The notes under the pieces are model-generated. The model was given only the letters and a program-made list of their open reading frames with translations, was not told where the DNA came from and did not search any database. Made by a program: the position numbers and the translations under genes. Shown here piece by piece: positions 14,827 through 64,000 of a DNA stretch of 64,000 bases (its first letter is position 1; the number at the start of each line of letters is the position of its first letter). The stretch comes from a virus: the IMG/VR virus record IMGVR_UViG_3300045999_011383; one strand, 5' to 3'.

Positions 14827-14879
14827 AATACTAACTCCTATAAAGAAAAAGATTACAGACCAAGAATATTAATCTGTAA

Positions 14880-15158: not shown

Positions 15159-15172
15159 GTGAACTGGCTGAT

Positions 15173-16036: not shown

Positions 16037-16263
16037 AATTCGATTTCTAAATTATCATGGGAATCGGCTAAAAGTTGATAGGTTGCCACCTGCTTAACAG
16101 AATCAGGAATCTTGATTTTAAAAGAGGAATTGTGACTGGAAACAGTTATTTCACCTGACAACCCCCCTCTAAAAACTGCCGCACCGCAAAGCAACCTATC
16201 ATCGTCGATGCGGCAGTTGATCAGGACAGCTAATAGTCCAGTGCTATCCTTGAGAACTTTCAT
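16024..16263 (-). CDS. small tail-module protein (79 aa)
   Basis: ORF track. Its ATG overlaps the stop of the upstream gene (16263) and it overlaps the next ORF by 13 nt. Confidence 0.5.
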   Translation of the reverse strand: MKVLKDSTGLLAVLINCRIDDDRLLCGAAVFRGGLSGEITVSSHNSSFKIKIPDSVKQVATYQLLADSHDNLEIELCAQ

Positions 16264-17021
16264 TAGAGGTTATAGGCAGGGAATCCACTGGAAGAACCAC
16301 CAGTTGCGTAGTAACCAGGAAGCCATGAAATTTCACCTTGAAACTCTAAAGTGCCAGTGTATTTCATGACTTCTTGCACCGTAACTGGCATAGTTAACGC
16401 CGTGGTTTTTGCTACACCTTCATATCTTTCGCCAGTAGGGAGTGTAGCGATCGCCCATAAGGGTCGGTTCATTAGCACCGGGTTGTTATATGGTGCTTTG
16501 ATGAAGTGCATCAAACACTGATCGTCTCTAAATTCAGTTCCTTCAAAAGTAATTTCTCGCTTCACACGAACGACGGCAGAGCTAGTACCGCTACCATTCA
16601 TGTTATTGGTGGTATCCACAACAACTGGTCCAAATTGTGGGGTCATGTTAGTGAGTCCTTGTAGCGGAAACATATCCTGAACTAAGCGAGAAGTAGCATT
16701 AGCAGGAATAGCTCTAAACAAAGGAGCAACTGTCAAGGATACTGCGGTAGTACCCGCTAAAGTTGCGTTAGCCAGCAAAAGTACGTGCTGACGACCCAAA
16801 GGATTGCTTTGAGCAGCAAAAGACAAGGAAGTACCAGCAGCAATAGTATAAGTAACGCCTGCTGTTGCAGTAACACTGATAGTAGTAGCTCCCTCTAAAG
16901 CACCGGCAGGACAAGTCAAAGTAGTAAAAGTAACTGAATCAGTGCCGGGGGGAAGTAATTTTAGATCAAGGCTAAAATTTTGAAGAACAATAGACTCAAT
17001 GGGACGGGTCGCTAAAGCCAT
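16263..17021 (-). CDS. putative major tail (tube) protein (252 aa)
   Basis: Position in the operon upstream of chaperones/TMP, plus size and T/S/A/G-rich beta-type composition. Assigned by synteny only. Confidence 0.5.
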   Translation of the reverse strand: MALATRPIESIVLQNFSLDLKLLPPGTDSVTFTTLTCPAGALEGATTISVTATAGVTYTIAAGTSLSFAAQSNPLGRQHVLLLANATLAGTTAVSLTVAPLFRAIPANATSRLVQDMFPLQGLTNMTPQFGPVVVDTTNNMNGSGTSSAVVRVKREITFEGTEFRDDQCLMHFIKAPYNNPVLMNRPLWAIATLPTGERYEGVAKTTALTMPVTVQEVMKYTGTLEFQGEISWLPGYYATGGSSSGFPAYNL

Positions 17022-18573: not shown

Positions 18574-18992
18574 ACCTTACCTGCTATTGTTAAACGACCC
18601 TCAATGTACTTATTTCTTCCTTCTAAATATCCATTTATTCTGTTTTGAACCACAGGAATAAATTGCCATTGACCTGTAACTGCATCACCCATTAAATCGG
18701 TTAAAACTGCGATCGCGGTAGTTTGATAGTCAATATCTAAGTTACCCCAATTGCCAATTTTACGACCCTTTAAATAAATGATATTTTGACCCATTTGAGC
18801 ATCTTCATAAAGAGGCTTAAAGTCTTTTTTGATAGAGACAGAAGCGTGAACAATGACGGTAGAAACCGACTCAATGATATTTCCTACGGCATCCTCAACA
18901 AATTGGCCACTGCCTGTTTGAAAGGTCAAACTTAGGTTAGAATTAAAGGGTTCTACATAGCCAATTGTTTGGTTTACATAGGAGGAAATCAT
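18570..18992 (-). CDS. head-tail module protein (about 141 aa from ATG 18992; track allows TTG 19055)
   Basis: ORF track. An ATG at 18992-18990 (MISSYVNQ...) avoids overlapping the divergent + gene. Confidence 0.5.
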   Translation of the reverse strand: MISSYVNQTIGYVEPFNSNLSLTFQTGSGQFVEDAVGNIIESVSTVIVHASVSIKKDFKPLYEDAQMGQNIIYLKGRKIGNWGNLDIDYQTTAIAVLTDLMGDAVTGQWQFIPVVQNRINGYLEGRNKYIEGRLTIAGKV

Positions 18993-19404
18993 GATTTTAT
19001 TCAGCAACTTTATTATCAAATATCCAGAATTTACAGGTGAGGAAACTAAGTTCAACTTGTTTCTTTCGGAAGCAATTCTAGAAGTGGAACTGTACCATTG
19101 GGGGAACTTGAAAAACGTAGCAATTGAGTTATTGACCGCTCACAAAATCACACTTACTAAGCAAAATGTAGGTAGTGATTATAGTACAGGAGTCCTGAAA
19201 AAATTAGAAGTAGATGACGAGTCTTACAATGTGGAACTTCAAAGTATTCCTAATAGTTATGGACAAAGTAAGTACGGACTTGAGTATCAACGACTGCTAA
19301 AGATTGTCACAAATACGAGTCCAGAATCAGCATCAACAACCAAAGGAACATCTTTTTTTGGGACTAGAGGTCAAAACCAGATCAAGTGGTCACAGTCTAA
19401 ATAG
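18991..19404 (+). CDS. DUF4054-like head-tail connector protein, inverted relative to the operon (137 aa)
   Basis: GGAGG-N5-ATG. FIIKYPEFTGEETKFNLFLSEAILEVELYHWGNLKNVAIELLTAHKITL matches the F..fPEF...A....WG.....l.AH.l.l adaptor pattern, and ...YGQSKYGLEYQRLL lies near the end. Confidence 0.6.
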   Translation: MILFSNFIIKYPEFTGEETKFNLFLSEAILEVELYHWGNLKNVAIELLTAHKITLTKQNVGSDYSTGVLKKLEVDDESYNVELQSIPNSYGQSKYGLEYQRLLKIVTNTSPESASTTKGTSFFGTRGQNQIKWSQSK

Positions 19405-20572
19405 TAGCGATCGCAGTATTTTCAACGTTCCTAGCAGCAATAAAGCGGGGGTCCATTGCCAACGGAAAACCACGACCCGCCACGGTAATGCTTTCTTGAG
19501 GTGGTTCTTTACTGAGAATATCAGTGGTAGTAACTAGTCCGCCTCTGAAGTTGTTGCTTGCGGTGGGGACAATGGCTCTTTCGATAAAATTATCGGTAGC
19601 AAAGAAATAGTAGCCACTGGGAATATAAGGCAACTCGACAGTACCATTACGTCCGCCACCGCGCTGATAGTAGACAGCATCGGATACAATAATCTGCGTA
19701 TTTGCATTTTGACCACCACCCGCTAAAAGCCGTTGCCCAATCAGTCCAGAAATCTCGGATAAAGATGGAGGTGGCATAGCAGCGACAGCGGCTGGGTTAG
19801 CTGCTCCTACTTCTGTAATCATACCCTTAGCACGCCCTACCGATTCTTTAGTGCTAGTCTGGTTTCTAAGATTGTTAGCAGTCACCCGACCCATAATAAT
19901 AAAAGGTGGGAACTTGTGTAGAGTAAGATAGTAGGACTCTATATGACTCACTAAGTCGTCAATGCCAGTAGCGGTTGTCCACTGTGACCATCTAGCAGTT
20001 CCAGTTAATGCGGCTGGTAAATGGGAAGTGGGGACTTGGTTTGAGTAGCTAAGGATAGCAGAAGCGCGAGATGTAGGATCGACATAATTGCATTGCCCAG
20101 TACAGGCAACCTGTAGTGTTAGCACAGTATGCAAGTTAATACATCCTTGATACAGAGAGGCGGGTATGCCTAAGTAAGTATCTTTAATCCTTTCAGCAGC
20201 TTCAGCATTGCCAGACATAGCAAGCCTTTCAGCTTGCTGCATTACCATGAAGTCCTCTTCTGTAATTAATCTACTTTTAGCTATTTTAAAGTTGCCAAAG
20301 GTTTCTTGGGTAACACTAATTCGATCTACATCCTGAGGAATAGTACCATCAGTAGCAACTACGTAAGCAAGAGTTGGGGTGTATGCCCGCATCTTGAGTA
20401 GTGCTAAAACCGGATCAGAATATTGGACAAAAGGGAAAAAGCGATTGAGAGCCGGATCAGGGTAGCCGTCTAGGTAGGTTTCCCCAGTGCTGCTAACAGT
20501 TGCAAGCTGCAAATCAATAGTGCGCTGGACTACCCCCGGCTGTGAATTAATTAATTCAATAATAGAAGCCAT
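19397..20572 (-). CDS. putative major capsid protein (391 aa, lambda gpE-like placement)
   Basis: Gene order protease/scaffold - 313 aa - 391 aa mirrors lambda C/Nu3-D-E, and the size fits. Family not verified. Confidence 0.6.
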   Translation of the reverse strand: MASIIELINSQPGVVQRTIDLQLATVSSTGETYLDGYPDPALNRFFPFVQYSDPVLALLKMRAYTPTLAYVVATDGTIPQDVDRISVTQETFGNFKIAKSRLITEEDFMVMQQAERLAMSGNAEAAERIKDTYLGIPASLYQGCINLHTVLTLQVACTGQCNYVDPTSRASAILSYSNQVPTSHLPAALTGTARWSQWTTATGIDDLVSHIESYYLTLHKFPPFIIMGRVTANNLRNQTSTKESVGRAKGMITEVGAANPAAVAAMPPPSLSEISGLIGQRLLAGGGQNANTQIIVSDAVYYQRGGGRNGTVELPYIPSGYYFFATDNFIERAIVPTASNNFRGGLVTTTDILSKEPPQESITVAGRGFPLAMDPRFIAARNVENTAIATI

Positions 20573-42063: not shown

Positions 42064-42289
42064 AAACTACAATTGCCTCCATTAGTTCTTGTAATGTAGT
42101 AAAACTGTGAGAATTGCTACGGTATTTCTCCGCAGTGTCTAGAATTTTCTCAGCTATATATTCGTTTTCGCAAATAATAACCAATGCTTCTAAAACCTTT
42201 CTTGCTTGATGATTCTTAAGATCATTGCACTCACTATTCAGGTATTGCAACATAGTCAACAATGGAACTTTCCACATACTTACCTCCAC
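42056..42289 (-). CDS. hypothetical protein (77 aa)
   Basis: ORF track; overlaps both neighbours by 8-10 nt. Confidence 0.5.
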   Translation of the reverse strand: MEVSMWKVPLLTMLQYLNSECNDLKNHQARKVLEALVIICENEYIAEKILDTAEKYRSNSHSFTTLQELMEAIVVYE

Positions 42290-51002: not shown

Positions 51003-52139
51003 TTAATCTCTTATTTGCACAGGCATGGTTAAATATGTCATTTTTAATCCACTTAACGGAGTAAAAATAACTGGTTGCAACTGATGATTTAAGTGAATTT
51101 GAATCTCTGCGGAAGATAACTCTTTAAGTCCTTCCAAAAGATATTTAACATTAAACCCGACTTCGATATCAGTACCAGAAACTTGGGCTGGTATTGACTC
51201 TATAGCACTACCCACATCTTGAGTTTCGCAGGACAAAATTACTAGTTGATTGTCCCTATCTAAAGACAATTTGACAATATTGTTTTTCTGACTAGCTAAC
51301 ACAGAAATCCGTTCTAAGGTGCTAATAAATTGTTTTCTGTCTATTGTTACTTCTCGCTCAAATTGCCTGGGAATTAATTGATTATAAGCAGGATAATGAC
51401 CTTCTAATGTGCGACTGGTTAATCTTTGGTTTCCACGCACAAATACTACTTGTACCGGATCTATGTAAATTTCAACCTGTTCAGGAGCAGAACCCTGGCT
51501 TAACATTTTTTGCAATTCTCGTAACGCTTTAGCAGGAATTGTCACCTCTGATTCTTGATCCTCGTCTGACTCACGACTGGTTTCCACTACCGCTAATCTG
51601 TGTCCATCGGTAGAGGCAAATTCTATACTATCTCGCTTTAAGAAAAAATGCACACCAGTGAGAACCTGTTTAGTCTCATCAGAGCTAGTAGCAAATAAAG
51701 TACGTTGCAGTCCCTCGCTAAGTGCCGAAGCAGAAACCTCAATTGGTTCTACCTCGTGAACTGTTGGCAACTCAGGAAACTCATCAGCATTCATAGCACG
51801 GACTTGATAGCGACCGCTTTTAGGTTTTAAAGTGACGGTAATACCACCGCTTTCTTCTTCAGTGCTACTGATTGTAATGTCACCCTGGGGTAATTTAGAA
51901 ACAATATCTAAGAGTAGTTTAGAAGGTATGGTAATTTCACCACCCTGTAACACCTGAGCATCAAAAGTAGTACAAATGCCTAAACTTAAATCAAAGGAAG
52001 TTAATTCCACTTGATCAGTGTCGCTGTTAGCCTTTAACAAAATATTAGCAAGTACCGGATGAGTTGGGCGTGAAGGAACAGCACGACTAGCCAAAGAAAG
52101 ATTGGCGTTAAGTTCAGATTGAGAGCAAATTAATTTCAT
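51003..52139 (-). CDS. dnaN: DNA polymerase III beta sliding clamp
   Basis: MKLICSQSELNANLSLASRAVPSRPTHPVLANILLKA... over 378 aa with three-domain length, ending ...MTYLTMPVQIRD. Confidence 0.9.
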   Translation of the reverse strand: MKLICSQSELNANLSLASRAVPSRPTHPVLANILLKANSDTDQVELTSFDLSLGICTTFDAQVLQGGEITIPSKLLLDIVSKLPQGDITISSTEEESGGITVTLKPKSGRYQVRAMNADEFPELPTVHEVEPIEVSASALSEGLQRTLFATSSDETKQVLTGVHFFLKRDSIEFASTDGHRLAVVETSRESDEDQESEVTIPAKALRELQKMLSQGSAPEQVEIYIDPVQVVFVRGNQRLTSRTLEGHYPAYNQLIPRQFEREVTIDRKQFISTLERISVLASQKNNIVKLSLDRDNQLVILSCETQDVGSAIESIPAQVSGTDIEVGFNVKYLLEGLKELSSAEIQIHLNHQLQPVIFTPLSGLKMTYLTMPVQIRD

Positions 52140-52268
52140 GATCTGTGGGAATGTTACTCGTATTAATACTATATTTAATAATAATATTAATTGATTAGTT
52201 TGTCAATAATACTCTCATTTTATGGTATTATTTTTATAGAAATTAATAATTAAAATCAGCAAAAAACC

Positions 52269-53714
52269 ATGACCGAAAAACCAGGGGAATATACAGCCAA
52301 GTACAAGCCAACTCAATTAATTCAAGGAACTGGACAGACTGCATTGATAACAGGATGGACTATCAAAGAAGCAGTCCAAAAACATTTGAGTAACCATGAA
52401 TATGCAGTTATTGGGCAACTATACTCACCCACAAGAGGGATTAACTTAGTGGTTCGGAATCTGCTATTAAATCCTCATGTTAGGTACTTAGTAATTCTCA
52501 ATGGAACTAAGGAAGACAAAAACGCAGGTGGCTGTCAATGTTTAGCTGACTTTTTTCGTTATGGTTTCAATAAAGGTATTAGTGATATTGGTAGAAAAAC
52601 CTGGGTAATTTCTTCTTCTATTACTGGCTATATTGACATCGAGATTGATATGAATGTTTTAAAAAAATTGCGTGAGTCTGTAGAAATCAAGGAAGTACAA
52701 TCAATAGCCCAAGCTGTTGAAGCGGTCAGAGATTATGCAACTAAAAAACCCGTTGCACCTTGGGGAACACCCTTAGAATTTCCCATGAGTACAATTGAAT
52801 CAAATACCCTACCAGGACCCCTCTATGGTCACAGAATAGAGGGTAAAACCATTGCGGAAACCTGGGTAAAAATCATCCATAGAATTAAAACAACCGGGGT
52901 GATCCGACCCACTAGCCATGATGGAACGTGGCAGGAATTGATAGATTTAATGGCAATTATTACCAATGAGCCTGATGATTTTTACTTTCCTGAACCCAAC
53001 TATTTGCCAGTAGATAGAAGTTTTTTACAAGAATATATTTCTCAGATATTAGAGGACGCGCCTAGTCAAGAAGGGATAAAATACACCTATGGACAAAGGT
53101 TACGTTCCTGGTTTGGTAAAGACCAGGTTCGACAGGTAATTGAAAAGCTAACCCATGACATTAATTCCGCCAGGGCTGTAATGTCTCTGTGGGATATTAA
53201 AGAAGACAACGATGAATCTAATCCCCCCTGTTTAAATCATATTTGGGTAAGGGTAGTCAGCGGTGAACTGTCTTTAACCGCAACCTTTCGTAGTAATGAT
53301 ATGTTCTCAGCATGGCCAGCCAATGCCATGGGTTTAAGGGCTTTACAGAAATATATTTATAGTGCTTTATTGAGTTCCCATCAATCCCTCAAATTAGGTC
53401 CATTGATTACCATTAGTCAGAGCGCTCATATTTATGATGATTGTTTTGAGAATGTCAGCAAGGTAATCTCATCTCAGTATGGTAAGATTGCCAAAAACCA
53501 GGATTACTCTGATCCTGTGGGGAATTTTATTATTAGTAATCAAGAGGGTAAAGTCGTGGTTGAGCATACCACCCCTGGTTCAGGAGAGGTGGTTAATTGT
53601 TATTCAAATAAGTCCGCTTATAAGGTGTCACAAGAAATAATGAGAGATTGTCCAGGGTTGCAAAACTCCCATGCTATGTATTTGGGATGGGAGTTGTGCA
53701 AGTTAAAGTATTAA
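52269..53714 (+). CDS. ThyA-superfamily enzyme (thymidylate synthase / pyrimidine hydroxymethylase-like) with ~230-aa N-terminal extension (481 aa)
   Basis: NPPCLNHIWVRVVSGELSLTATFRSNDMFSAWPANAMGL aligns to the ThyA motifs PCH..xQFyV..g.LscqlyQRSxDxxLGxPFNIAsy (Cys nucleophile, R-S-x-D, Asn). Confidence 0.7.
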   Translation: MTEKPGEYTAKYKPTQLIQGTGQTALITGWTIKEAVQKHLSNHEYAVIGQLYSPTRGINLVVRNLLLNPHVRYLVILNGTKEDKNAGGCQCLADFFRYGFNKGISDIGRKTWVISSSITGYIDIEIDMNVLKKLRESVEIKEVQSIAQAVEAVRDYATKKPVAPWGTPLEFPMSTIESNTLPGPLYGHRIEGKTIAETWVKIIHRIKTTGVIRPTSHDGTWQELIDLMAIITNEPDDFYFPEPNYLPVDRSFLQEYISQILEDAPSQEGIKYTYGQRLRSWFGKDQVRQVIEKLTHDINSARAVMSLWDIKEDNDESNPPCLNHIWVRVVSGELSLTATFRSNDMFSAWPANAMGLRALQKYIYSALLSSHQSLKLGPLITISQSAHIYDDCFENVSKVISSQYGKIAKNQDYSDPVGNFIISNQEGKVVVEHTTPGSGEVVNCYSNKSAYKVSQEIMRDCPGLQNSHAMYLGWELCKLKY

Positions 53715-53829
53715 ATTGTGCTTTAGCGTTCTTGTTCTTCTTTCTTTTGTTCTTCCTTGAATGTTCGCCAATCATCGAGAACTTTAAACCATTTTTTCTC
53801 CAAACACCAAAAATTTAACTCTCAAAAAA

Positions 53830-54852
53830 CTAGGAAACCTTGATTTCAGCGATCGCTTCTTCTAAATGTTCCTGAATCACTAATCCCTCTCGCTCTAAAA
53901 TCGCTCGTTTAGCTGCATCTTGGGCAACCCTCACAGCTTGAGCCGCAGAAAAATCTTTCATCTGTTCAATAATTCTTGGCCAGTTGATAGATCCCACTTC
54001 AATTGCAGATAGTGTTTCCCTCAGTATAAATTCTAGTTCTTTTTCTCCCGGTTTGGGTACTGCAATCAGATCATCAAATCTCCTCCATAGGGCAGTATCC
54101 AAAGATTTATTCAAATTCGTAGCGGCTACCATAAGCCCAGAAGAAGGTTGATATTCATCCAAAATTTGCAAAAATGTATTTACTACTCGCTTAATTTCTC
54201 CCACTTCCTGAGAATCTTCTCGTGTCTTAGCAATTGAGTCACATTCATCTAAAAATAATAAACATGGATTTTTTGCAGCATCCTCAAATACCAGTCTTAA
54301 ATTACTGGCTGTCTCCCCTAAAAAAGACGACACCATTGCATCAAAACGTACTTTTAACAGTGGTAAACCTGTATTCCAGGCTAAACGTTCTGCTCCTAAT
54401 GTCTTTCCACACCCAGGCGGTCCATAAAGGAGAATTTTTTGCCGATAACGCAGCCCATGATGAGCTAGTCTATCTCTTGCTGCATACTCGCGCTCAATTC
54501 TTTGAAAACGCTTTTCAATTTTTTCAGGCAATACCATGTAATGACGTAGTTTATCCCTTGGTATGGTCGTTACCAAGGGAAGGTTAAAACGCTTACTGGT
54601 TGGTAATTCGCTTAAACCCTGTAAGTTTTCTCCTGTTGTTTGTGTGGCATTTGCAAGAAAGGAAACAGGTTTGATAGGGTCGGGAGATTGATCTCTGGGT
54701 TTCTTTTTAGCAATATTCTCTAACTGGTCAGCAAGGAGGGTATGCCCTTTACTGCGCTCTTCTTCTATGACCAGATATGCAAGTTTGTCAATCGCTTCTT
54801 GGTCTGAACTAGCGATCGCTCTGAAAAACCTTTTGAGAATCTCTCCCTTCAT
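53830..54852 (-). CDS. AAA+ ATPase (classic clade), 340 aa
   Basis: Walker A ILLYGPPGCGKT, Walker B CLLFLDECDS, second region of homology ...VAATNLNKSLDTALWRRFD. Confidence 0.8.
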   Translation of the reverse strand: MKGEILKRFFRAIASSDQEAIDKLAYLVIEEERSKGHTLLADQLENIAKKKPRDQSPDPIKPVSFLANATQTTGENLQGLSELPTSKRFNLPLVTTIPRDKLRHYMVLPEKIEKRFQRIEREYAARDRLAHHGLRYRQKILLYGPPGCGKTLGAERLAWNTGLPLLKVRFDAMVSSFLGETASNLRLVFEDAAKNPCLLFLDECDSIAKTREDSQEVGEIKRVVNTFLQILDEYQPSSGLMVAATNLNKSLDTALWRRFDDLIAVPKPGEKELEFILRETLSAIEVGSINWPRIIEQMKDFSAAQAVRVAQDAAKRAILEREGLVIQEHLEEAIAEIKVS

Positions 54853-54951
54853 ATTGCCTCTCTCTGCAAAAATAGAAGTTTCTTATGTATGTAGTACAAT
54901 TATACTCTATAACTCAGTGGATGACAAATTGTATCATGATCTTGCCTTGCA

Positions 54952-54965
54952 TTGCAACTGGGCTT
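54952..54965 (+). other. inverted 14-nt copy of the CRISPR repeat 3' end (TTGCAACTGGGCTT), anti-repeat candidate
   Basis: Exact reverse complement of AAGCCCAGTTGCAA from the repeat. Confidence 0.6.
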
Positions 54966-54968
54966 TGA

Positions 54969-55034
54969 CTTGCAATTAACCCAGTCCCTCAAGGTCGGCT
55001 TCTTGCAATTAACCCAGTTCCCCAAGTCCGGTTT
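54969..55034 (+). repeat. two abutting 33-nt degenerate CRISPR repeats without spacers
   Basis: cttgcaattaacccagtccctcaaggtcggctt / cttgcaattaacccagttccccaagtccggttt align to the 37-nt repeat with about 1/3 mismatches. Confidence 0.7.
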
Positions 55035-56171
55035 GCTTCAACTATCCTCAGTCCCTAAGCCCAGTTGCAAGTGTCAAGGGGTTTATTTTCGAAACCCTTA
55101 TATTTCCTACGTCGTTTCAACTATCCTCAGTCCCTAAGCCCAGTTGCAAGTGAAGGACGTGATTCTAATGCAGCAAAGAACATCTGTTTCAACTATCCTC
55201 AGTCCCTAAGCCCAGTTGCAAGACACATTCTTTATCTTTTAAATATAGCTTATACCATCTGTAGTTTCAACTATCCTCAGTCCCTAAGCCCAGTTGCAAG
55301 AACACCTTACCACCTTTAAGGTAAGACGGCACTTTAGGTTTCAACTATCCTCAGTCCCTAAGCCCAGTTGCAAGACAGAATTGAGAGAACTTTCAAGCCA
55401 TAAGAGAGTAGCGTTTCAACTATCCTCAGTCCCTAAGCCCAGTTGCAAGATTTTCAAAAATTTAAAAATGAATCTGGACATGAAGATGTTTCAACTATCC
55501 TCAGTCCCTAAGCCCAGTTGCAAGAATGCACATTAACAAAAAAAAACCATGAAAAACCGTTTCAACTATCCTCAGTCCCTAAGCCCAGTTGCAAGAAAAC
55601 TTATCAGATACTTAATAAGGCTATAGGTTAGTTTCAACTATCCTCAGTCCCTAAGCCCAGTTGCAAGCTCCCATTTATACAGCTTACTAGCAGCGCAAAT
55701 AGTTTCAACTATCCTCAGTCCCTAAGCCCAGTTGCAAGTCAAAAATCAACAGGAATTGGCCACTACTATTGAAGGATGTTTCAACTATCCTCAGTCCCTA
55801 AGCCCAGTTGCAAGATAAAGCCGTCCGGGGAGGCATGACTAATGAGGATGGTTTCAACTATCCTCAGTCCCTAAGCCCAGTTGCAAGTTGAGACAGTTAA
55901 ACCCAAGGTACTTTAACCTAGTTTCAACTATCCTCAGTCCCTAAGCCCAGTTGCAAGAAAGTATTAAAGAAATGCTCAAACTACCGGCATGTTTCAACTA
56001 TCCTCAGTCCCTAAGCCCAGTTGCAAGTTGCTACATTTACCATACTTATGGAAACTGTCAATGTTTCAACTATCCTCAGTCCCTAAGCCCAGTTGCAAGT
56101 TACTTTGTAAGACGTTATGTAAGACGGCGATGGAGTTTCAACTATCCTCAGTCCCTAAGCCCAGTTGCAAG
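55035..56171. CRISPR. CRISPR array, 16 x 37-nt repeat GTTTCAACTATCCTCAGTCCCTAAGCCCAGTTGCAAG
   Basis: Repeat starts 55035 (1 mismatch), 55114, 55186, 55264, 55338, 55413, 55488, 55559, 55631, 55702, 55778, 55851, 55921, 55991, 56063, 56135. Spacer lengths 42,35,41,37,38,38,34,35,34,39,36,33,33,35,35. Transcription direction unresolved. Confidence 0.97.
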
Positions 56172-56202
56172 TCCCGGCTTTCAAAAGCTTTATAAGTCAA
56201 GG

Positions 56203-56239
56203 GTTTCAAAGGCAATTCTGGCGGACCTGCTAAAAAATC
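56203..56239 (+). repeat. vestigial terminal repeat (only GTTTCAA conserved) after a 31-nt spacer-like segment
   Basis: gtttcaaaggcaattctggcggacctgctaaaaaatc versus the repeat. Confidence 0.4.
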
Positions 56240-56514
56240 TCATTTCAGCCGCTTAAATCAGCTTGGGTCTTTAAAAGAAACTGAGCGAAACTCTTGCAAT
56301 GTCATGGTTCTGGACTTTTGGCGAATGTCCAGGGTTTTTACCCTAGCTTTGATATGCCAAAAAGATGAGATAGTTGCCAGCCATAGTTCCGGCTGGTCTT
56401 TGGGGGTTGTCGCCTTCCCCCTTACTTTTTAGGGTAAAACCCTTACAAGTCATAAGCTAACATTACATTAGCTACCCGTCCAAACTGCGGTAATTTAATA
56501 TTAACCTAGTCCTA
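56240..56514. ncRNA. hairpin-dense 275-nt region between effector stop and array; candidate tracrRNA / omegaRNA-like scaffold
   Basis: GC-richer than the flanks. Stems CTGGAC-N11-GTCCAG (56310-56332, then GGTTTTT), CCAGCC-N8-GGCTGG, GGGGG-N10-CCCCC, AGGGT-AAA-ACCCT. Repeat-complementary patch at 56277-56300. Confidence 0.35.
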
Positions 56515-58389
56515 TTACTTTGTCAAGCGTTTTTTCTTAAATCTTTTAGGCTTTTGATAAACCAGCCTAACATTATGGTATTTGACCTCTCCCAATTCAA
56601 AACCACCATTCTGTTTATGATTTCTAGCAGCATTGGTATCAGCTTGTTGGGCAACGTCAAATAATTTACAGTCAGGGTTTTTACAGACAAATTCATACTG
56701 CGATCGCCTTTCCCCTTTCTGTCCGCAACAATGGCATATTTGAGAGCTATAATTAGCAGGTGGTTCATGGAAGTTGCCACCTCTATTTTCTATTTTTTGC
56801 TTGGTTTTAGCTTTCAAGTCACCTAAACATCTTTGTCTCATAATCCAGTTTAAACCACGTTTAGCAGATGCACCATTGTGAGCATATCCCACACCCTCTG
56901 GTAATGCTTTTGGATCTACTTGTTTAAGTAAGTTGGTAACTTGTGTATCCTCCCAAGATATATGTTCATAAGTGCGAGATAATCTTGTGGATAACTTGTG
57001 ATTAAAGGCATTAGAGGAATTAGCCCCGCGTTCGTGTAGACGGCTGATTTTTTGTTGTAACTTAGATTCATTCTTTGTCTTGATTCTAGAGGTCTTGTTG
57101 CCTAAGCTTTTCCATTTTTTATCATTAATTAATTCAGCGTTGTCTAGACGTGATTGTAATTCCTCAATGTGAATTGAGATCCGCTCCCTAGTAAGGTTAG
57201 GAAGGAATAAAGCCCCATGATCTGTAGACACTACAGCCTGTACCCCAGGGTCAATACCCGCACTCAGATTTTTACCTTTTAAAACTGATGACTGCTTAAT
57301 TTGTTGCTCAATGAATTTCAGTTTTGACTTGATATCTTGGTACTCTTCACTGTCTTCACCAAACTCTTTTTTTACCTTGGGTAACTTATTTGTTAGTACA
57401 GACTTTTCCTCTTGCAATGGGTGAGCAACTACAATATTAATGTAGTATCCTGACTGCTGTTTGGTAATCATGTATGTCCGTGGCAAAACCTGAGAAAGAT
57501 TCAATCTTTTTACCCAGTTTTTGTCAGCAATAGTGATGGGAGTAAGTCCGGTGACAGTAACTATGTTTTTGTCAATGTCAATCCTGTTAGGCGCACATTG
57601 ATTATTAGATAAAGTTGCAATCTTGTCTACATCTTTTTTGAATTTTGGCTTTCTACTGTTTATCCTTTTAGGATCTAAAAATGCCTTCCAAGATTCCTTA
57701 AAAAATGCTAACAGCCCGCCAATATAGTGGGAAGAAACCTGCAAGTCTGGTAAATTTTGGAATGCTCTTAAAGTATTTAATCCAGTCACGTTGTCAAGTT
57801 TTTCCAAAGTAGTCAGTTCCCTACCCTCATACTTTCCACTAGGGAATGTGCGGTATTTGTGAGGGACTATTTCTATCCGTTGCCAGGGCTTATCGCCTTT
57901 AACTAATTTGTACCCCTTGACGTAAATAACGCCTTTTTTGGTATTAACTGGAATATTGATATTTTCATCTCTCTTCCAATAATTCCCGCCTGTGGCTATT
58001 TGACAGGATAATCCTTCATAAGCACTATTTCCAAGCCTTAATGGCACAGGAATAATGCCTTCCAAGCTAAATGGACTCCATCTGGTAAATATCTCAAATT
58101 CTTTCTTGCTAACTAATTCCTGTTCTTTTTTAGACAGCTTAGGCTTATCCTTGGTGGAATAGTAATCTTTAACTAATTGTTGTTGCTCAGGTTTAAGTTT
58201 TTCCAGTTTTTCAGTAGCCTTGGTTAAATCTGCACTGCGTTTAGCAGCCCAAGCATACCAATCTACGCAGTGATTGTGTAGTTGGTTGGAAAGTGCTAAA
58301 TTCCACAGCCATGTTAATTCATCTAAGTAGCGATCGCACACAGCCGCCTGTTCTGATGAGAGTTTGATTTTAATCTTAATTGTCTTCAT
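56515..58389 (-). CDS. TnpB-like type V CRISPR effector (compact Cas12 / V-U-type), 624 aa
   Basis: GIDPGVQAV (RuvC-I D), HISWEDTQV (RuvC-II E), CHCC-x13-CKNPDC zinc ribbon, QQADTNAARN (RuvC-III D). Adjacent to the array. Confidence 0.8.
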   Translation of the reverse strand: MKTIKIKIKLSSEQAAVCDRYLDELTWLWNLALSNQLHNHCVDWYAWAAKRSADLTKATEKLEKLKPEQQQLVKDYYSTKDKPKLSKKEQELVSKKEFEIFTRWSPFSLEGIIPVPLRLGNSAYEGLSCQIATGGNYWKRDENINIPVNTKKGVIYVKGYKLVKGDKPWQRIEIVPHKYRTFPSGKYEGRELTTLEKLDNVTGLNTLRAFQNLPDLQVSSHYIGGLLAFFKESWKAFLDPKRINSRKPKFKKDVDKIATLSNNQCAPNRIDIDKNIVTVTGLTPITIADKNWVKRLNLSQVLPRTYMITKQQSGYYINIVVAHPLQEEKSVLTNKLPKVKKEFGEDSEEYQDIKSKLKFIEQQIKQSSVLKGKNLSAGIDPGVQAVVSTDHGALFLPNLTRERISIHIEELQSRLDNAELINDKKWKSLGNKTSRIKTKNESKLQQKISRLHERGANSSNAFNHKLSTRLSRTYEHISWEDTQVTNLLKQVDPKALPEGVGYAHNGASAKRGLNWIMRQRCLGDLKAKTKQKIENRGGNFHEPPANYSSQICHCCGQKGERRSQYEFVCKNPDCKLFDVAQQADTNAARNHKQNGGFELGEVKYHNVRLVYQKPKRFKKKRLTK

Positions 58390-59189
58390 GTCCGTCGTCT
58401 TCCTGTTGTTTTTGTCAATTGGTGTTGATGTAAATAGCTGTTTTGTGCTATATTGTTAGTTGCCGCTCCCCCAAACTAGCGGCTAAGTACCTGGTAATAG
58501 AAACGTCGTTATTGGTACTAACCGCGTTTTTTGGTATTTATTTAGGATAGCACAAATTTGGTAATTTAAAAATATTTTTTATATTAAAAATTAGACATTA
58601 ACTGATAGTTGCATACACCCCAAATCTTTACCCCAGTCATGTTTTAACTAATTCCTGCTTTCTTTTGTAAGACAATAATGTCAGACAATGTAAACAATGT
58701 AGACAAATAATCTTGTTTGAAAACAGCCACAGAACCCGTCATTTTAACCACTGGGTTCTTATTACTTATTGACAATTAGTAGATTAATAAATGTCTGCTG
58801 ATTAGGCAGACGGTATTGCACAGGTGACAACCGAGTTATTAGTATAGCATCATAGCAAGTTATTTATACAACAATTAAACAATTGCAAAATTCCGTATAC
58901 TTTAGGGTTGGCACTGGAAAACTATAAGGATATTATAGGGATATAGAGTATCTAAGCGGAATGCCCTTCATAAGAGGATTTGAGAAAAGAACTAACACCA
59001 CAGATATCTGTTGTTCCTGAGACAAAGGTGCGCCTGCTGCGCTTAAACACTATTACAGAAAAAACAAATAGACTTTGTTTCAGAATTTATAAAGCAATTT
59101 TAAAGCGTACTTATTGCATAAATAAAAAAATACCCACTAAAGCGTGTTAGTGGGTAGTGGAAATAAGCTACTTCACTGGAATACTTGCA

Positions 59190-59441
59190 TTAAATTAACT
59201 CCAGCAAAATTGTTAATGCGGACTGGATACTGTTAATAGCATCTTTGATTAATGCCCGCTTTTGGGTTGCGGGTTTGTTTGGACTAGAAACTAATAACTC
59301 ATCATTAGCTATTAGTTTCATGAATTTGGAAATGTTGGGGTCTTCACCCCACAGGCAGCCAAACTCCAAAGCTTTATTCTCTAGCTTGGCTTTGTCTTCC
59401 ATTGAGATAGAGAGCGTGATGCTCTCTTGTTTTCTACTCAT
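59190..59441 (-). CDS. ribbon-helix-helix-like small protein (83 aa)
   Basis: ESITLSISMEDKAKLENKALEFG (beta-strand then helix). 4-nt overlap with the upstream ORF. Confidence 0.5.
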   Translation of the reverse strand: MSRKQESITLSISMEDKAKLENKALEFGCLWGEDPNISKFMKLIANDELLVSSPNKPATQKRALIKDAINSIQSALTILLELI

Positions 59442-59947
59442 AGAGAAATATTCCCTTTATTTTCAATCCACCATTTTGCGGACGTGGGAATTTTCTTATT
59501 GTTTTTTAGTGCGATCGCAACATCATCTATTGCTCTAACTGCTATAGATTTAGCCCATTTAATCTGCTTTTCAGAGCCTTCAAACTTTAGCGACTCTACA
59601 TAATTAAGAGCATCTTCTCTGTTGCTTTCTGAGACTGGATCTTCTTCCTCGATCTCATAATCGCACGGAATACTATCTAAATTCTTTAAAACAGCACTGA
59701 AAATTATTTCATTTATAGGTACAGAAGAGAGAATAAAACTCTCTTCTCTGATTACCTCTAGAACTAAATCTTCAGCAATAGATTGATAGGTTTCACCTGG
59801 CTCTAACTGGAACTCAGAATTGCTCACTAAATATTCCACTACCTTTCTAACGGCTTTCTGGCATTCTGGATTTCTAAAATCCACACGAATCATTTGAAGC
59901 CCAGAAGTGTCAAATTTATTTAAAAGCCTTCTTTGTTTGATAGCCAT
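59438..59947 (-). CDS. hypothetical acidic protein (169 aa)
   Basis: ORF track. First gene of a 2-gene operon behind an early-type upstream element. Confidence 0.55.
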   Translation of the reverse strand: MAIKQRRLLNKFDTSGLQMIRVDFRNPECQKAVRKVVEYLVSNSEFQLEPGETYQSIAEDLVLEVIREESFILSSVPINEIIFSAVLKNLDSIPCDYEIEEEDPVSESNREDALNYVESLKFEGSEKQIKWAKSIAVRAIDDVAIALKNNKKIPTSAKWWIENKGNISL

Positions 59948-60013
59948 GATACAATACCTTTAAACGATGTTTTACTTAGAGGCTTGGGCTTGCTCCCCTT
60001 GCCTCTATATTTA

Positions 60014-60480: not shown

Positions 60481-60999
60481 GTGACAACCAATCATTACGG
60501 AATGCCACAGACACGAGACAAGTGTTATGGCGTGGCTGCTTGTTTAAGTTATTGGGTTTTTAAATGCCGTGACAGGAAACGTAGTCCAGCCATGGGAACT
60601 AAAACCTGGACATATTTGGAATCTTCTATCAAGAATTGTGCAGAAATATCCACAAATTTAGAAGATTATCTACAAAATCTTTGTGATAAATTGATATCGC
60701 AATTAAGACCTGTAGAGCTAACCAAAATTATTCAACCAACTCAGAGAATACTGAGAATTAATGAAGATGCAACTGAAATCAAGGAACTACCAATAGATCG
60801 AAGTTTGGTTTTTATGGGGTGGCTTGACTTGCTTGCCGATATTGAACCCCACGGATTTAGTGAGTGGGACGTAATGGAATTGTTAAGAACAAAAACAGGA
60901 GTTATTCAAGTAATTTGTCGTCTGCGATTTGAAGAAGATAGAAGTGTGGGGCTTGATGAACCAGAAGAATTTATTGAGGTAGAGGTGACAAATGTTTGA
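60481..60999 (+). CDS. small helical protein, Cas11-like position in the Csf operon (172 aa; start uncertain)
   Basis: GTG start. 8-nt overlap with the Cas7-like gene. Size and predicted helical composition fit a small subunit. No motif proof. Confidence 0.35.
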   Translation: MTTNHYGMPQTRDKCYGVAACLSYWVFKCRDRKRSPAMGTKTWTYLESSIKNCAEISTNLEDYLQNLCDKLISQLRPVELTKIIQPTQRILRINEDATEIKELPIDRSLVFMGWLDLLADIEPHGFSEWDVMELLRTKTGVIQVICRLRFEEDRSVGLDEPEEFIEVEVTNV

Positions 61000-62125
61000 T
61001 AATTATAATATTTTTGACAGAGAGAAATTAACCCTGCATTGCTTAATCACGCTACAGACACCATTGAGCCATATAGGCGAAGTGTCTGGCAATGTTAGCA
61101 ATCTGAAAACTACTAAGTTATTGGACTTTGAAGGTAATCCTAGAAGTGTTTTTGTCTATTCTGGTAATGCAATCAGAAACGGTATTTTGCGCCGGGTAGG
61201 AGTGGCAGCAGCACTCACGGAATTAGGAATTAAGGTAAATCCAGATACTCACCATACAATGTTTGCTGGCGGGCGAATTGATGGGGGGACAGCTTCGGAT
61301 ATGGAACTGGATAAAAAGATCCGGGTCTTTATGCCTTGGCTATCAGTATTGGGAACAGCCAAACCCATAGGTGTTTTTGGGACTAAAGAAGCCCAGATGG
61401 TAGCTGGTAGAAGTAATATTGGCAGTGGTTATTTAGTCTGCTATGAGTCAGCAGAATACGTTTACAACCAACTCCCAGCAGTTTTACCACCGGAAATACA
61501 GCCAACTATGGCCTTATTAATTGAAGCTAAAACCAGACTTTCTTCCGACCCTTTTGTATCCACAAAATCAGAAGACTTAACTAACTGGAATCAAGCAAAA
61601 TCAGAATGTTTGCCACTGATCAAAAAAGCAATGAAAACATGGACTGAATACTTAACAATTGATCAGACAACTCGCAGAGATAGCACTTTAGATCCCAACT
61701 TACTCAAATTTCTACCATCAGAAGTACAAGCACAATTAACAGGTGATGGTAAAACTAAAGAAAAAACTAAATCAGATCAGATGATTGCGTCTGACAGGCT
61801 GATCATGCCCGGTGCTAAACTTTATTCTCGATGGGATCTAACTTGTACTCAAATAGAAGAGGGATGGATATTTGATACTTTACTCAAGTTTTCAGAATCA
61901 CCTTATATTGGTGGTAAAGGCAATCGTGGCAATGGCAGGGTTCATCTTGATTTCTGGTTTCAGTCTGACCATGAACGGGGGTTATTGTGTTCTCTGAAAG
62001 ATGGAATTATGGGAGATAGGTTTCTTAATTCCCATCAAAAATATCGGGAATATATCAATCAGTATCAGCAGTTTTTAAGTGAAGCAAAAACATCCAAGGA
62101 ATTAAGGAAGTTGTTAGGTGAATAA
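60992..62125 (+). CDS. Cas7-like RAMP (Csf2-like), 377 aa
   Basis: LTLHCLITLQTPLSHIGE, VYSGNAIRNGILRRVG, HTMFAGGR, C-terminal Gly-rich loop IGGKGNRGNGRVHL. Confidence 0.6.
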   Translation: MFDNYNIFDREKLTLHCLITLQTPLSHIGEVSGNVSNLKTTKLLDFEGNPRSVFVYSGNAIRNGILRRVGVAAALTELGIKVNPDTHHTMFAGGRIDGGTASDMELDKKIRVFMPWLSVLGTAKPIGVFGTKEAQMVAGRSNIGSGYLVCYESAEYVYNQLPAVLPPEIQPTMALLIEAKTRLSSDPFVSTKSEDLTNWNQAKSECLPLIKKAMKTWTEYLTIDQTTRRDSTLDPNLLKFLPSEVQAQLTGDGKTKEKTKSDQMIASDRLIMPGAKLYSRWDLTCTQIEEGWIFDTLLKFSESPYIGGKGNRGNGRVHLDFWFQSDHERGLLCSLKDGIMGDRFLNSHQKYREYINQYQQFLSEAKTSKELRKLLGE

Positions 62126-62804
62126 TTTAAAAGTCACTGCATATTTGTCTACACCGATTGGTGTCTATGACAATTGGAGTCCTTCTTTGGAGGGACTTCT
62201 TACCTATAGATTACTAGAAGAAAATAATCTATTGTCTCCCAATCCCACCGCAGAGCAAGTAGCAAAGGTTCAGAATTTTTTAGTAAATGAATTACCGCTT
62301 AAACAGAATACAATAATGAATGATAAGTATTTCTGTGTAAGTTCACCTTGCTATGTGGTTCAAGGTGAGGCTACTGATAAATATCGGAAAAGATGGGACA
62401 ATCACGAAAATAATCTGAACTGGGGAAAAAGAAAGCCTAAATTCTTGACGGGTGAAGGTGCAGAAAAGTCCTATGATTTACCGCTATACACTCGTTTAAC
62501 AAATAGTATTAGTTGGTTTGTAACAGGCGACAGAACCAAGATTGACGCTCTATTGTCACCTGTTACCCATATTCAGAAAAAACGAAGTTATGGCAATGGT
62601 GAAGTTAAGCAATGGCAACTAGAAATAGTTTATGACGACTATCATTTGTGGCGAGATAATAAACTAATGCGTCCTATGCCCGTGAAGTTAATATCACAAA
62701 AAATAGATAATCCTCAAATGATTTGGGGATGGAAAAGCCCGTCTTGGTTAGCAGAAAATAAAGAACTTTGTTATATGCCAAAGGACAATGTGATTTATGC
62801 TTAG
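62118..62804 (+). CDS. Cas5-like RAMP (Csf3-like), 228 aa
   Basis: KVTAYLSTPIGV...SPSLEGLLTYRL, C-terminal Gly-rich loop IQKKRSYGNGEVKQW. Confidence 0.55.
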   Translation: MNNLKVTAYLSTPIGVYDNWSPSLEGLLTYRLLEENNLLSPNPTAEQVAKVQNFLVNELPLKQNTIMNDKYFCVSSPCYVVQGEATDKYRKRWDNHENNLNWGKRKPKFLTGEGAEKSYDLPLYTRLTNSISWFVTGDRTKIDALLSPVTHIQKKRSYGNGEVKQWQLEIVYDDYHLWRDNKLMRPMPVKLISQKIDNPQMIWGWKSPSWLAENKELCYMPKDNVIYA

Positions 62805-63543
62805 TAATGGCTCTGGGGTTCAATACCCTTGGTTGAAAAAGAAAATTACTAAAGCTATTAATTTCATTAATCAGTGGCTAGAACAATGCAACTATCAGGT
62901 TTATGCAAGTATTTCCGGTGGTAAAGATAGCTTAGTAATGTCTCATTTGATCAGGAAAGTTTACCCTGATTGCCCGTTAGTTTGGGTAAATCAAGGGCTG
63001 TTAGCAGAATGGGATGATTGTATTGAATTATTGGAATACTTGAAAACTCAAAACTGGAACATTATTGAGCTTTGTCCAGTTCGTGATTTATGGCATTTAT
63101 ACATAGATCACGGAGTTCCGTTAGAGGGTACGATGGATACAAAAGTAGATAAATTAATCAACCAAAAATTGATTTATGATCCATTGCAAGAATACCAAGA
63201 AATCAACAATATCAAAGGGTACGCATGGGGAATAAGGAAGCAAGAAAGCAAAAACAGAGCATTTTATCTTAACAAGTACGGTGAAGTTCATGAACTAAAA
63301 AATGGGTTAATTTGTTGCTCGCCTATTGCTCACTGGACTACAGAAGAAATATGGCAGTACATAGATATGTACTCACTCAAATACCCAGCAATTTATGACA
63401 TTAACAAAATGACAGTCAGGAATGGTTGCCCGATTGGAACTACAGGAGCAAACTGGGGTAGATTAGCTGAATTAAAAAGATATTACCCCAATATTTACAA
63501 CCAATTTGTTGATAAATTCCCACAAATATCGAACTATGTCTAA
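62797..63543 (+). CDS. PAPS-reductase-family (CysH-like) PP-loop protein, 248 aa
   Basis: VYASISGGKDSLVMSHL (SGGxDS PP-loop), ...GIRKQESKNR..., CSPIAHWTTEEIWQYI. Confidence 0.75.
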   Translation: MLSNGSGVQYPWLKKKITKAINFINQWLEQCNYQVYASISGGKDSLVMSHLIRKVYPDCPLVWVNQGLLAEWDDCIELLEYLKTQNWNIIELCPVRDLWHLYIDHGVPLEGTMDTKVDKLINQKLIYDPLQEYQEINNIKGYAWGIRKQESKNRAFYLNKYGEVHELKNGLICCSPIAHWTTEEIWQYIDMYSLKYPAIYDINKMTVRNGCPIGTTGANWGRLAELKRYYPNIYNQFVDKFPQISNYV

Positions 63544-64000
63544 TTGCTACCTTTGCGCTAAACCAGCATCAAATCCACTAGAATTATCCAATACTTTCAC
63601 CATGCACTCATCGGCTAAGTGTCCAGACTCTAAGCTGCTGTGCGATCGCTGCTATTCTACAATTTCTGGTAATCAAAAGCAGTTATGGTATTGGAATGAA
63701 GGTAAAAATAAGTGGTCAAAACTGTGGGGACGATCTTTGTCCAGGGTGTACCAAGGCGATACTTTAATAGCACCAATAATTAAAGGCACTCACACTGAAG
63801 GCAAAGATACTTTCAGTGTGGTTAGAAACTTATTGACGCGGGTAGAAATCAGGGAATATTTATTAAATCCTCCTGAGCCACCGTTCACTATCGCTATAGC
63901 AGAATCAGGACAAAAACACATTATCCCATGGGCATTAGAAGCGCGTAGCTGTAACTTTTTTCCAATTCAATTTGAGTTAGACACGGTTTATATTGACAAC
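63536..64000 (+). CDS. zinc-finger protein, Csf1 (Cas8-like)-type candidate; 3' end beyond window
   Basis: Own translation, open to the window end: MSNCYLCAKPASNPLELSNTFTMHSSAKCPDSKLLCDRCYSTISGNQKQLWYWNEG...IAIAESGQKHIIPWALEAR... CxxC-x28-CxxC. 8-nt overlap with the CysH-like gene. Confidence 0.45.
   Translation, partial: MSNCYLCAKPASNPLELSNTFTMHSSAKCPDSKLLCDRCYSTISGNQKQLWYWNEGKNKWSKLWGRSLSRVYQGDTLIAPIIKGTHTEGKDTFSVVRNLLTRVEIREYLLNPPEPPFTIAIAESGQKHIIPWALEARSCNFFPIQFELDTVYIDN

Follow-up and report, generated by a model that had tools for sequence, protein, structure and literature searches.

A type V-P (Cas12p) CRISPR locus, very probably complete, in an uncultured tailed phage

Introduction

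Among the described systems built on short palindromic repeats that are clustered and regularly interspaced (CRISPR), the closest to the locus discussed here is type V-P, whose effector, Cas12 hacker (Cas12p), stands for a phage-encoded family of 500–700 amino acids (aa) (Wang et al., bioRxiv 10.1101/2025.01.20.633832). We analyzed the 64,000-nucleotide (nt) stretch of the virus record IMGVR_UViG_3300045999_011383, called the window throughout, and compared it with related contigs, which carry locus numbers such as L010. The DNA is that of a tailed phage not in culture, and between its positions 55035 and 58389 the window contains what is very probably a complete CRISPR system of type V-P. The central finding on such systems is already known: the Cas12p or Cas12 hacker family was shown in 2025 to cut DNA with host thioredoxin bound. 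What the window contributes is native context beyond the searched text of the preprint, namely a probable host range in the Nostocales, a type IV-B neighbor, a swap between V-U2 and V-P cassettes, and a spacer directed against a rival system.

According to the preprint, Cas12p needs a trans-activating CRISPR RNA (tracrRNA) and a 37-nt repeat, whose final four bases, AAAC, form a pseudoknot with tracrRNA positions 7–10 (AAAC:UUUG). It recognizes a GTN protospacer-adjacent motif (PAM), with the preference GTA > GTG > GTT > GTC, and cuts double-stranded DNA in a staggered fashion with some trans activity. Host thioredoxin TrxA strictly enhances this activity by binding to a thioredoxin-binding (TB) domain inserted in REC. 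For one member, Cas12 hacker-1, cleavage of double-stranded DNA in vitro, interference in vivo, and an electron cryo-microscopy structure with TrxA, single-guide RNA and DNA have been reported. Cas12p is described as a heterodimer with thioredoxin, as opposed to the Cas12f homodimer and the transposase complex of Cas12k, while its PI domain is Cas12k-like and its GTN preference is the same as that of ShCas12k. The hosts are said to "remain to be determined", and in the searched text of the preprint cyanobacteria, V-U2, type IV systems and the targets of native spacers were not found to be mentioned.

A second point of reference is type V-U2 (C2c8), of which the Aphanizomenon phage vB_AphaS-CL131 (CL131) carries a reported putative locus; its authors found no tracrRNA (PMC6293099). 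An earlier reading of the window, made from its letters alone and referred to here as the sequence-only reading, was correct about the CL131 report, classed the window effector with it and held that no such system had been shown to function. The last statement is outdated by the activity of Cas12 hacker-1 (bioRxiv 10.1101/2025.01.20.633832), and the V-U2 label does not hold for reasons given below.

A Cas12p effector with intact functional residues

All parts of the locus lie on the minus strand: cas12p (58389–56515) is followed by a promoter that overlaps its stop codon, a tracrRNA from 56491 and an array at 56171–55035. The features are:

56515–58389, minus strand: cas12p, 624 aa (phmmer against the PDB and residue alignment)
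56498–56526, minus strand: sigma-70-type promoter, with −35 TTGACA at 56526–56521, a 17-nt spacer and −10 TAATAT at 56503–56498
56232–56491, minus strand: predicted tracrRNA locus (ten-locus alignment, RNAalifold, duplex energies)
56172–56231, minus strand: stretch of 60 nt between the T-run of the tracrRNA and the first repeat
55035–56171, transcribed on the minus strand: CRISPR array with 16 copies of a 37-nt repeat and 15 spacers
55151–55185, minus strand: spacer 14 of 15 counted from the leader, matching the RuvC-III coding region of a V-U2 (C2c8) effector gene

The 624-aa protein is composed of a WED/REC part with the inserted TB domain, a PI domain, RuvC and a zinc finger, and the Pfam model Cas12f1-like_TNB matches it at 3.7e-9. 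A phmmer search against the PDB aligns residues 1–615 of the query without large gaps to chain 9jfs_A, entitled 'Cas12p', at 1268 bits. Identity to 9JFS is 88.3% over 613 residues, and a further entry, 9jg3, bears the same name. The protein of L010 (IMG/VR 3300042378_000447) is identical to the solved Cas12p at 613 of 613 residues; comparisons with L010 are therefore comparisons with the characterized system.

The conservation extends to the residues on which function depends. D380 (GIDPGV), E480 (WEDTQ) and D584 (ADTNAA) align with the catalytic D378, E478 and D582 of the solved ortholog, and the zinc finger (C552/C555...C569/C574, CHCC...CKNPDC) is present and conserved. The TB pocket is retained at all ten positions (W104, F107, L109, I112, I113, V115, L117, C129, I131 and I174), among them C129, the redox cysteine of the domain, and W44, Y45 and W47 are likewise the same as in 9JFS. 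Three of the four PAM-contacting residues are conserved (D199, N263 and Q264). The sequence-only reading had described the open reading frame (ORF) at 56515–58389 with its TnpB/Cas12 motifs and had picked the same three RuvC residues as an intact site; the alignment with the published catalytic triad bears out both. Judged by its sequence, the effector is Cas12p (type V-P) and not a V-U2 protein, and gene, array and RuvC site appear to be real and intact.

Promoter, tracrRNA and array

The 343 nt between the stop codon of cas12p and the nearest repeat constitute the most conserved non-coding DNA of the region, as seen in an alignment of ten related loci that runs from the 3′ end of cas12p through the first repeat. 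The −35 hexamer overlaps the last codons of cas12p, and the promoter is found by consensus scan as well as by alignment. In each hexamer, five of six positions are invariant in the 10 loci, and no more than one locus deviates at the remaining position. The predicted transcription start is the A of ACCGCAGUUUGG at 56491, six bases beyond the −10 element. It is followed at 56485–56482 by GUUU, the partner of the repeat's 3′ AAAC, which takes up tracrRNA positions 7–10 in eight of eight loci, as in the published tracrRNA. Farther on, an invariant hairpin (CCAGCCGGAACUAUGGCUGG) directly precedes the anti-repeat CAACUAUCUCA at 56376–56366, whose counterpart in the repeat is GAGGAUAGUUG. The anti-repeat changes with each locus's repeat; L003, L008, L017 and L018 have one of nearly full length, while that of the window is short. 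A T-run at 56232 closes the conserved 3′ part.

RNAalifold predicts 45 pairs for this RNA, 13 of them with compensatory changes. On the predicted structure 95% of cells pair, compared to 34–52% when the partners are slid, and none of 500 shuffles attains the observed pairing or covariation. Duplexes of repeat and anti-repeat have a mean energy of −26.7 kcal/mol for cognate and −16.8 kcal/mol for non-cognate combinations, and the tracrRNA region of the window is 92% identical to that of L010. These observations argue for a conserved promoter at the stop codon that is predicted to drive a structured tracrRNA. Rfam at gathering thresholds found nothing in the whole window, and neither did a scan for tRNA and tmRNA.

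The array repeat reads GTTTCAACTATCCTCAGTCCCTAAGCCCAGTTGCAAG on the plus strand. Of its 16 copies, 15 are identical and the one at 55035 has a single mismatch; the 15 spacers, each unique, are 33–42 nt long and have no match in the window outside the array. In the sense of the CRISPR RNA (crRNA) the repeat is CUUGCAACUGGGCUUAGGGACUGAGGAUAGUUGAAAC, also written CUUGCAAC...GUUGAAAC. We place the leader end of the array at 56171 and the oldest, mutated repeat at 55035. This minus-strand polarity follows from degenerate repeats that, in the window, L003, L004 and L015, are found at the end far from the gene, from a derived repeat variant in gene-proximal position in L017, and from the published order of the crRNA, in which the repeat (...AAAC) precedes the guide (bioRxiv 10.1101/2025.01.20.633832). 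The 60-nt stretch at 56172–56231 may be a leader; L010 and L018 have no such stretch. As to the inventory of the locus, the sequence-only reading had the ORF and the array right, including 16 repeats of 37 nt at a distance of 343 nt from the stop, and it overlooked the tracrRNA with its promoter, the type IV-B genes at 60481–64000 and the repeats at 54969–55034.

One further feature lies just past the array:

54952–54965, plus strand: 14 nt (TTGCAACTGGGCTT) that duplicate, in inverted orientation, the 5′ part of the Cas12p repeat (direct sequence reading)

It was considered as an anti-repeat and dropped, the true anti-repeat being located in the conserved RNA beside the gene.

Phage setting, relatives and likely host

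The phage setting proposed by the sequence-only reading is borne out by genes for the large terminase (TerL, 8.9e-140), head protease, major head protein, primase and sliding clamp. On the minus strand, an ORF of more than 4,900 aa (1–14826) extends past the start of the window; it probably encodes the tape-measure protein, the model for this reading being the 13-kb gene so annotated in Cylindrospermopsis raciborskii virus RM-2018a. None of Cas1, Cas2, Cas4 and Cas6 is found among the best 25 of 76 matched PADLOC families (74 ORFs, E <= 4e-9; a weak Cas2 match could lie beyond this threshold), in agreement with the earlier view that adaptation genes are lacking.

A homolog search returned 56 relatives of the window protein. 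Wherever a source is named, it is a cyanobacterium (Anabaena sp. WFMT, Sphaerospermopsis, Nostocaceae, Scytonema and a Cyanobacteriota metagenome-assembled genome, MAG), and a genome scan added a Cuspidothrix MAG (L021). Phage isolates infecting Cylindrospermopsis and Aphanizomenon encode homologs as well, the nearest being two Cylindrospermopsis phages at 45% identity. Since all labeled relatives are cyanobacterial and most of them Nostocales, the host is probably a filamentous cyanobacterium of this order. TerL and primase have no close cultured relative among phage isolates (<=45% identity), so that the host is not assignable by that route, and a megablast search of 54900–60000 against GenBank phages returned nothing.

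The gene is consistently linked to an array. The array begins 285–367 nt downstream in the window and in the phage loci L003, L004, L008, L010 and L012, and at the same range of distances in the phage loci L015, L017, L018 and L019 and in L021, the contig of the Cuspidothrix MAG; wherever a contig extends far enough downstream of the gene, an array is found there. The chromosomal cyanobacterial loci L022 and L023 have downstream arrays of 29 and 35 repeats, and one is also present in L025, a more distant, phage-like locus with a 37%-identical protein. Repeats end in GAAAC at all array-bearing relatives, including the last three, and altogether more than 15 loci combine the gene with an array and a tracrRNA that co-varies. 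Phages with 87–88% identical effectors have no spacers in common, which implies turnover of the arrays despite the phage's lack of detectable adaptation genes.

Relatives have been deposited under the annotation 'transposase'. This applies to the 45%-identical Cas12p-like protein of virus RM-2018a (L001, 8001–10007), where a Csf3 homolog about 3 kb away (13199–13852) is annotated 'hypothetical protein'. No array lies beside the Cas12p-like gene of RM-2018a, the one isolate examined of the two. A third array type (GTTTCCTCCCACCCCAA(T/C)(C/T)CTTTCGCCCCTTAGCAAG, 7–11 copies) is located upstream of cas12p near an NblA gene in L004 (6959–7669), L015 (5778–6246), L005 and L006, and no effector gene adjoins it directly; among its spacers, one is a perfect match to the sibling contigs L051 and L052.

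Exchange of V-U2 and Cas12p cassettes

The immediate surroundings of the locus are shared with phages that carry a different effector. The features in question are:

54923–58366, no strand assigned: exchangeable cassette (blastn of the window against L081)
54969–55034, plus strand: two spacerless 33-nt repeats of V-U2 type, near-identical to those of the V-U2 arrays in L081, L082 and L010

The closest sister phage is IMG/VR 3300008116_000022 (L030, L081), with 99% identity in TerL and 98.5% in an IetA-like ATPase. By blastn, window positions 52000–54922 correspond to L081 15676–18598 at 98.2%, and 58367–58729 to L081 21650–22014 at 95.3%. Between these flanks L081 has a V-U2 gene, 77% identical to CL131 gp061, together with a V-U2 array, and the window has cas12p, tracrRNA and the Cas12p array. 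Collinear flanks around different cassettes mean that either effector system can take the place of the other at this phage locus, as a cassette. The right breakpoint falls 8 nt into the ORFs; both proteins begin with MKT and have the upstream region in common.

At the left junction, the two V-U2-type repeats (CTTGCAATTAACCCAGT(C/T)CC(T/C)CAAG(G/T)(T/C)CGG(C/T)TT) abut the Cas12p array and remain as the scar of a replaced V-U2 array. In the sister phage L081 a full V-U2 array occupies their place (18599–19940). An interpretation as degenerate trailer copies of the Cas12p repeat was dropped, as the repeats match the V-U2 type. L010 contains both systems, with a V-U2-type effector gene and a 28-repeat array at 12930–16569; there the two arrays stand tail to tail, 26 nt apart.

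Spacer targets and PAM

Spacer 14 matches the V-U2 effector gene of several sister phages and of CL131, at 34 of 35 positions in L081, 33 in L010, L039 and L082, 32 in L033 and 31 in CL131 gp061. In L082 and L033 the 5′ flank of the target (crRNA sense) is GTA, the best published PAM; in CL131 it is TCA. When all 15 spacers are compared with the phage collection, CL131 gp061 is the only match, and the plasmid collection gives none. The two newest spacers have no exact 24-nt match in IMG/VR.

Further matches come from other Cas12p-type arrays. Their spacers match a protelomerase gene (flank GTT), a gene of the tail cluster (GTG) and a sibling's cas12p (TTG), the phage's own copy of which has one mismatch. 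Three of the four protospacer loci of Cas12p-type arrays show GTN in at least some targets. In the reverse direction, spacers of the V-U2 arrays of L039 and L082 match the window at 53696–53729 (3 mismatches) and 42144–42180 (1 mismatch). The L082 spacer (5633–5669), which matches the latter site, is at the same time a perfect match to its own genome; either self-targeting is tolerated or V-U2 has a non-cleaving role.

Overall, the spacer matches suggest conflict between sibling phages, and the flanks are consistent with GTN in a small sample. The natural role of the window system is most likely such a conflict with co-infecting siblings, because the sole identifiable spacer target is the V-U2 effector gene at the same locus in sister phages. 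Use against competing elements, as proposed in the sequence-only reading, is therefore probable.

Proposed mechanism

By analogy with the characterized ortholog, Cas12p would load the pair of tracrRNA and crRNA. In this pair, GUUU at tracrRNA positions 7–10 is expected to form the pseudoknot with the repeat-terminal AAAC, and CAACUAUC to pair with GAUAGUUG; the crRNA would take the form ...UAGUUGAAAC followed by the spacer. The loaded effector would recognize a 5′-GTN PAM, and the RuvC site D380/E480/D584 would make staggered cuts in double-stranded DNA, again as in the ortholog. By the same analogy, docking of host thioredoxin in the hydrophobic pocket of the TB domain would be required for activity; a search of the window for a thioredoxin gene or a WCGPC motif found neither. 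New spacers presumably come from host Cas1-Cas2 acting in trans, or from recombination.

The cassettes of Cas12p and V-U2 may even be competing alleles of one locus, with the Cas12p cassette spreading like a homing element, an extension that we regard as unlikely. A spacer of the Cas12p array targets the V-U2 effector gene between the same flanks in siblings; upon co-infection, the V-U2 allele would be cleaved and repaired from the Cas12p genome via the 95–98% identical flanks, which would leave the sibling with the Cas12p allele. The two V-U2 repeat remnants at the left junction, the right breakpoint at the start codon and the synonymous difference at the PAM position, GTA versus GCA, would fit this course of events.

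Weighing the evidence

Several observations weigh against the interpretation of the locus as a working type V-P system directed at siblings. In the protein, L51 of the ortholog is R51 and K332 is N334; the exchange K332A is reported to cost only a slight loss (bioRxiv 10.1101/2025.01.20.633832). Where targets are concerned, the spacer search suggested in the sequence-only reading gave a match to the V-U2 gene for one of the 15 spacers, and the other 14 have no identifiable target in phages, plasmids and 1.68 Mb of related loci. The best-matching targets of spacer 14 (L081, L039 and L010) are flanked by GCA and not by GTN, the difference between GTA and GCA being a synonymous change of a leucine codon in the V-U2 gene (codons read by eye), and the PAM sample comprises four protospacer loci only. 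Gene-proximal spacers common to L016 and L017 are at odds with simple acquisition at the leader end. An 88%-identical ortholog assayed in E. coli is the source for activity, RNA ends and thioredoxin dependence, and the host call is based solely on the taxonomic labels of relatives and on cyanophage homologs.

Regarding L016 and L017 (12232–12452), the two arrays have the same repeat and three gene-proximal spacers in common and diverge farther out, the opposite of the usual pattern at a leader end. The contig of L016 terminates inside the array, and an assembly effect is possible.

The alternative that survives best involves the neighboring genes, which are:

60481–64000, plus strand: type IV-B cassette, 2 kb from cas12p, a neighbor only
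60481–60999, plus strand: cas11 (PADLOC typeIV_Cas11, 2.5e-6)
60992–62125, plus strand: csf2/cas7 (PADLOC typeIV_Cas7, 9.1e-35)
62118–62804, plus strand: csf3/cas5 (PADLOC typeIV_Cas5, 2.5e-40)
62797–63543, plus strand: cysH-like PAPS reductase (Pfam PAPS_reduct, 6.1e-18)
63506 to beyond 64000, plus strand: csf1/cas8, cut by the window end (PADLOC typeIV_Cas8, 6.5e-17)

The array could mainly or additionally serve this Csf machinery, with host Cas6 cutting at the ...AUUGAAAC tag and Cas12p as a secondary user. The complete csf cassette is conserved by the type V module in most relatives, the Csf complex comes with neither Cas6 nor an array, and (A/G)UUGAAAC at the end of the repeats is similar to the 5′ tag of 8 nt that class 1 crRNAs have after Cas6 processing. 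Published descriptions of type IV-B, in which it is without RNA-processing subunits and assembles on heterogeneous non-CRISPR RNA, are also in line with this alternative. However, the array directly follows cas12p and the tracrRNA even where no csf gene is in reach (L003, L008, L022, L023 and L025), the anti-repeat co-varies with the repeat, and csf genes are also found beside V-U2 modules with unrelated repeats (L033), so that the proximity may reflect no more than synteny in a single lineage of phages. On balance, we consider service of the array to Csf improbable. That the module of type IV-B and CysH shares the array, or host thioredoxin, with Cas12p is a weaker extension of the homing-like reading.

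Somewhat less probable still is an inactive relic whose array is inherited but unused. The many spacers without a known target, the mostly non-GTN flank of the one target and the failure to find adaptation genes would agree with it. Against this speak a full-length ORF with intact functional residues, 15 of 16 repeats that are identical, and a promoter and tracrRNA conserved with compensatory changes; the lack of common spacers among phages with 87–88%-identical effectors moreover implies turnover.

The type V-U2 (C2c8) classification, with a locus like that of CL131 and possibly a regulatory TnpB-like system, has very little probability left. It owes its appeal to the best profile matches of the window protein, V_cas_c2c8 of NCBIfam (4.3e-55) and Cas12u2 of PADLOC (2.9e-56), to the homology with CL131 gp061 (28.6% identity over 60% of the query), and to the true V-U2 cassettes at the same locus in sister phages. 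However, on V_cas_c2c8 (NF038192) the window protein attains 187.6 bits against a curated cut-off of 350, which the controls CL131 gp061 (450.8 bits) and the second effector of L010 (433.9 bits) both pass. The match to this profile of 457 positions is limited to the C-terminal RuvC half, with residues 364–559 as the best stretch, while the protein is about 160–200 aa longer, has a TB domain and is 88% identical to Cas12p; V-U2 repeats, finally, belong to another family and are oppositely oriented relative to the gene.

An ordinary IS200/IS605 or IS607 TnpB gene that happens to lie near an array can practically be dismissed: besides the depositors' 'transposase' label, there are weak matches to OrfB_IS605 (1.3e-4) and IS200/IS607 TnpB (~1e-9), but the scores stay below the cut-offs (IS200_TnpB 36.9 vs 425, IS607_TnpB 36.3 vs 350, guided_TnpB 91.4 vs 100), the gene is single-copy within the window, no TnpA appears among the matches listed (PADLOC, 74 ORFs) or among the neighbors scanned with Pfam and NCBIfam, the ends of insertion sequences (IS) having had no dedicated search, and the tracrRNA and array accompany the gene from locus to locus. 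In this respect the sequence-only reading, which saw a TnpB-derived effector fixed beside an array and outside an IS element, was on firm ground.

Further neighboring features

The neighboring cassette resembles type IV-B in having all four csf genes and a gene of the PAPS reductase family, and no Cas6 or DinG model is among the top PADLOC families in the window. It differs from known type IV-B in its gene order, cas11-csf2-csf3-cysH-csf1, and in being phage-borne, with a type V module and its array only 2 kb away. Scores of the csf proteins on the TIGR equivalog models lie far below cut-off and thus indicate a divergent member of type IV-B. In most related contigs the cassette is again present, at 2–10 kb from the type V module; in L033 it adjoins the V-U2 module, and the published L010 locus is likewise next to a type IV-B cassette. 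PAPS reductases are classically thioredoxin-dependent, and the presence of a cysH-like gene near a thioredoxin-binding Cas12p is a coincidence worth recording.

Between cas12p and the csf cassette, an 83-aa ORF (59190–59441, minus strand) is 91–96% conserved in many related contigs and has by eye the look of a ribbon-helix-helix regulator, with no profile match. The 800 nt directly upstream of cas12p (58390–59190) contain no ORF of at least 60 aa. Parts of them, such as 59032–59156, recur at at least two places in related contigs (L010 4847–5102 and 9406–9525), which suggests a repeated intergenic element.

On the other side of the locus, the AAA ATPase at 53830–54852 (minus strand; PADLOC IetA, 2.5e-79), 98.5% conserved in the sister phage L081, is without an adjoining IetS-like protease; the neighboring gene, on the opposite strand, is thymidylate-synthase-like. 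The giant ORF at the window start contains in-frame tandem repeats, 18 nt × 7 at 1–127 and 15 nt × 9 at 13510–13642.

Comparison with known systems

Viewed from the most remote of its relatives inward, the window effector has the RuvC and zinc-finger core in common with ISDra2 TnpB and its omega RNA, Cas12f and Cas12k. As in these systems, the DNA for the scaffold RNA follows the gene immediately downstream, on the same strand, and the RNA is predicted to form a pseudoknot with the repeat or guide-proximal segment. The similarity to them is remote (E of 1e-3 to 1e-5 against the PDB chains), and the window gene lies outside a transposon and has a separate tracrRNA plus an array.

With the V-U2 loci of CL131 and L081 it shares a small TnpB-derived effector, an array downstream, the lack of adaptation genes and the cyanophage setting. 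The window protein is however only about 28% identical to V-U2 proteins, in the RuvC half, and has 624 aa with a TB domain, whereas they have 426–466 aa without one; the repeats are of a different family and their orientation relative to the gene is the opposite.

At a single slot, sister phages exchange V-U2 and V-P cassettes, and they carry spacers that match one another's DNA, the effector gene of the rival system among the targets. This opens the natural role of Cas12p, and that of the uncharacterized V-U2, to direct testing in culturable pairs of cyanophage and host.

By far the closest system is Cas12 hacker-1, encoded by L010. The window has the same RuvC triad, zinc finger and thioredoxin pocket of the TB domain including its cysteine, a 37-nt repeat that ends in AAAC, the identical order of gene, tracrRNA and array in a phage genome, and a 92%-identical tracrRNA region with GUUU at positions 7–10. 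It differs from L010 at five positions in the interior of the repeat, with the anti-repeat differing accordingly, and in all of its spacers; and it keeps only two V-U2 repeat remnants where L010 has a V-U2 locus tail-to-tail with the Cas12p array.

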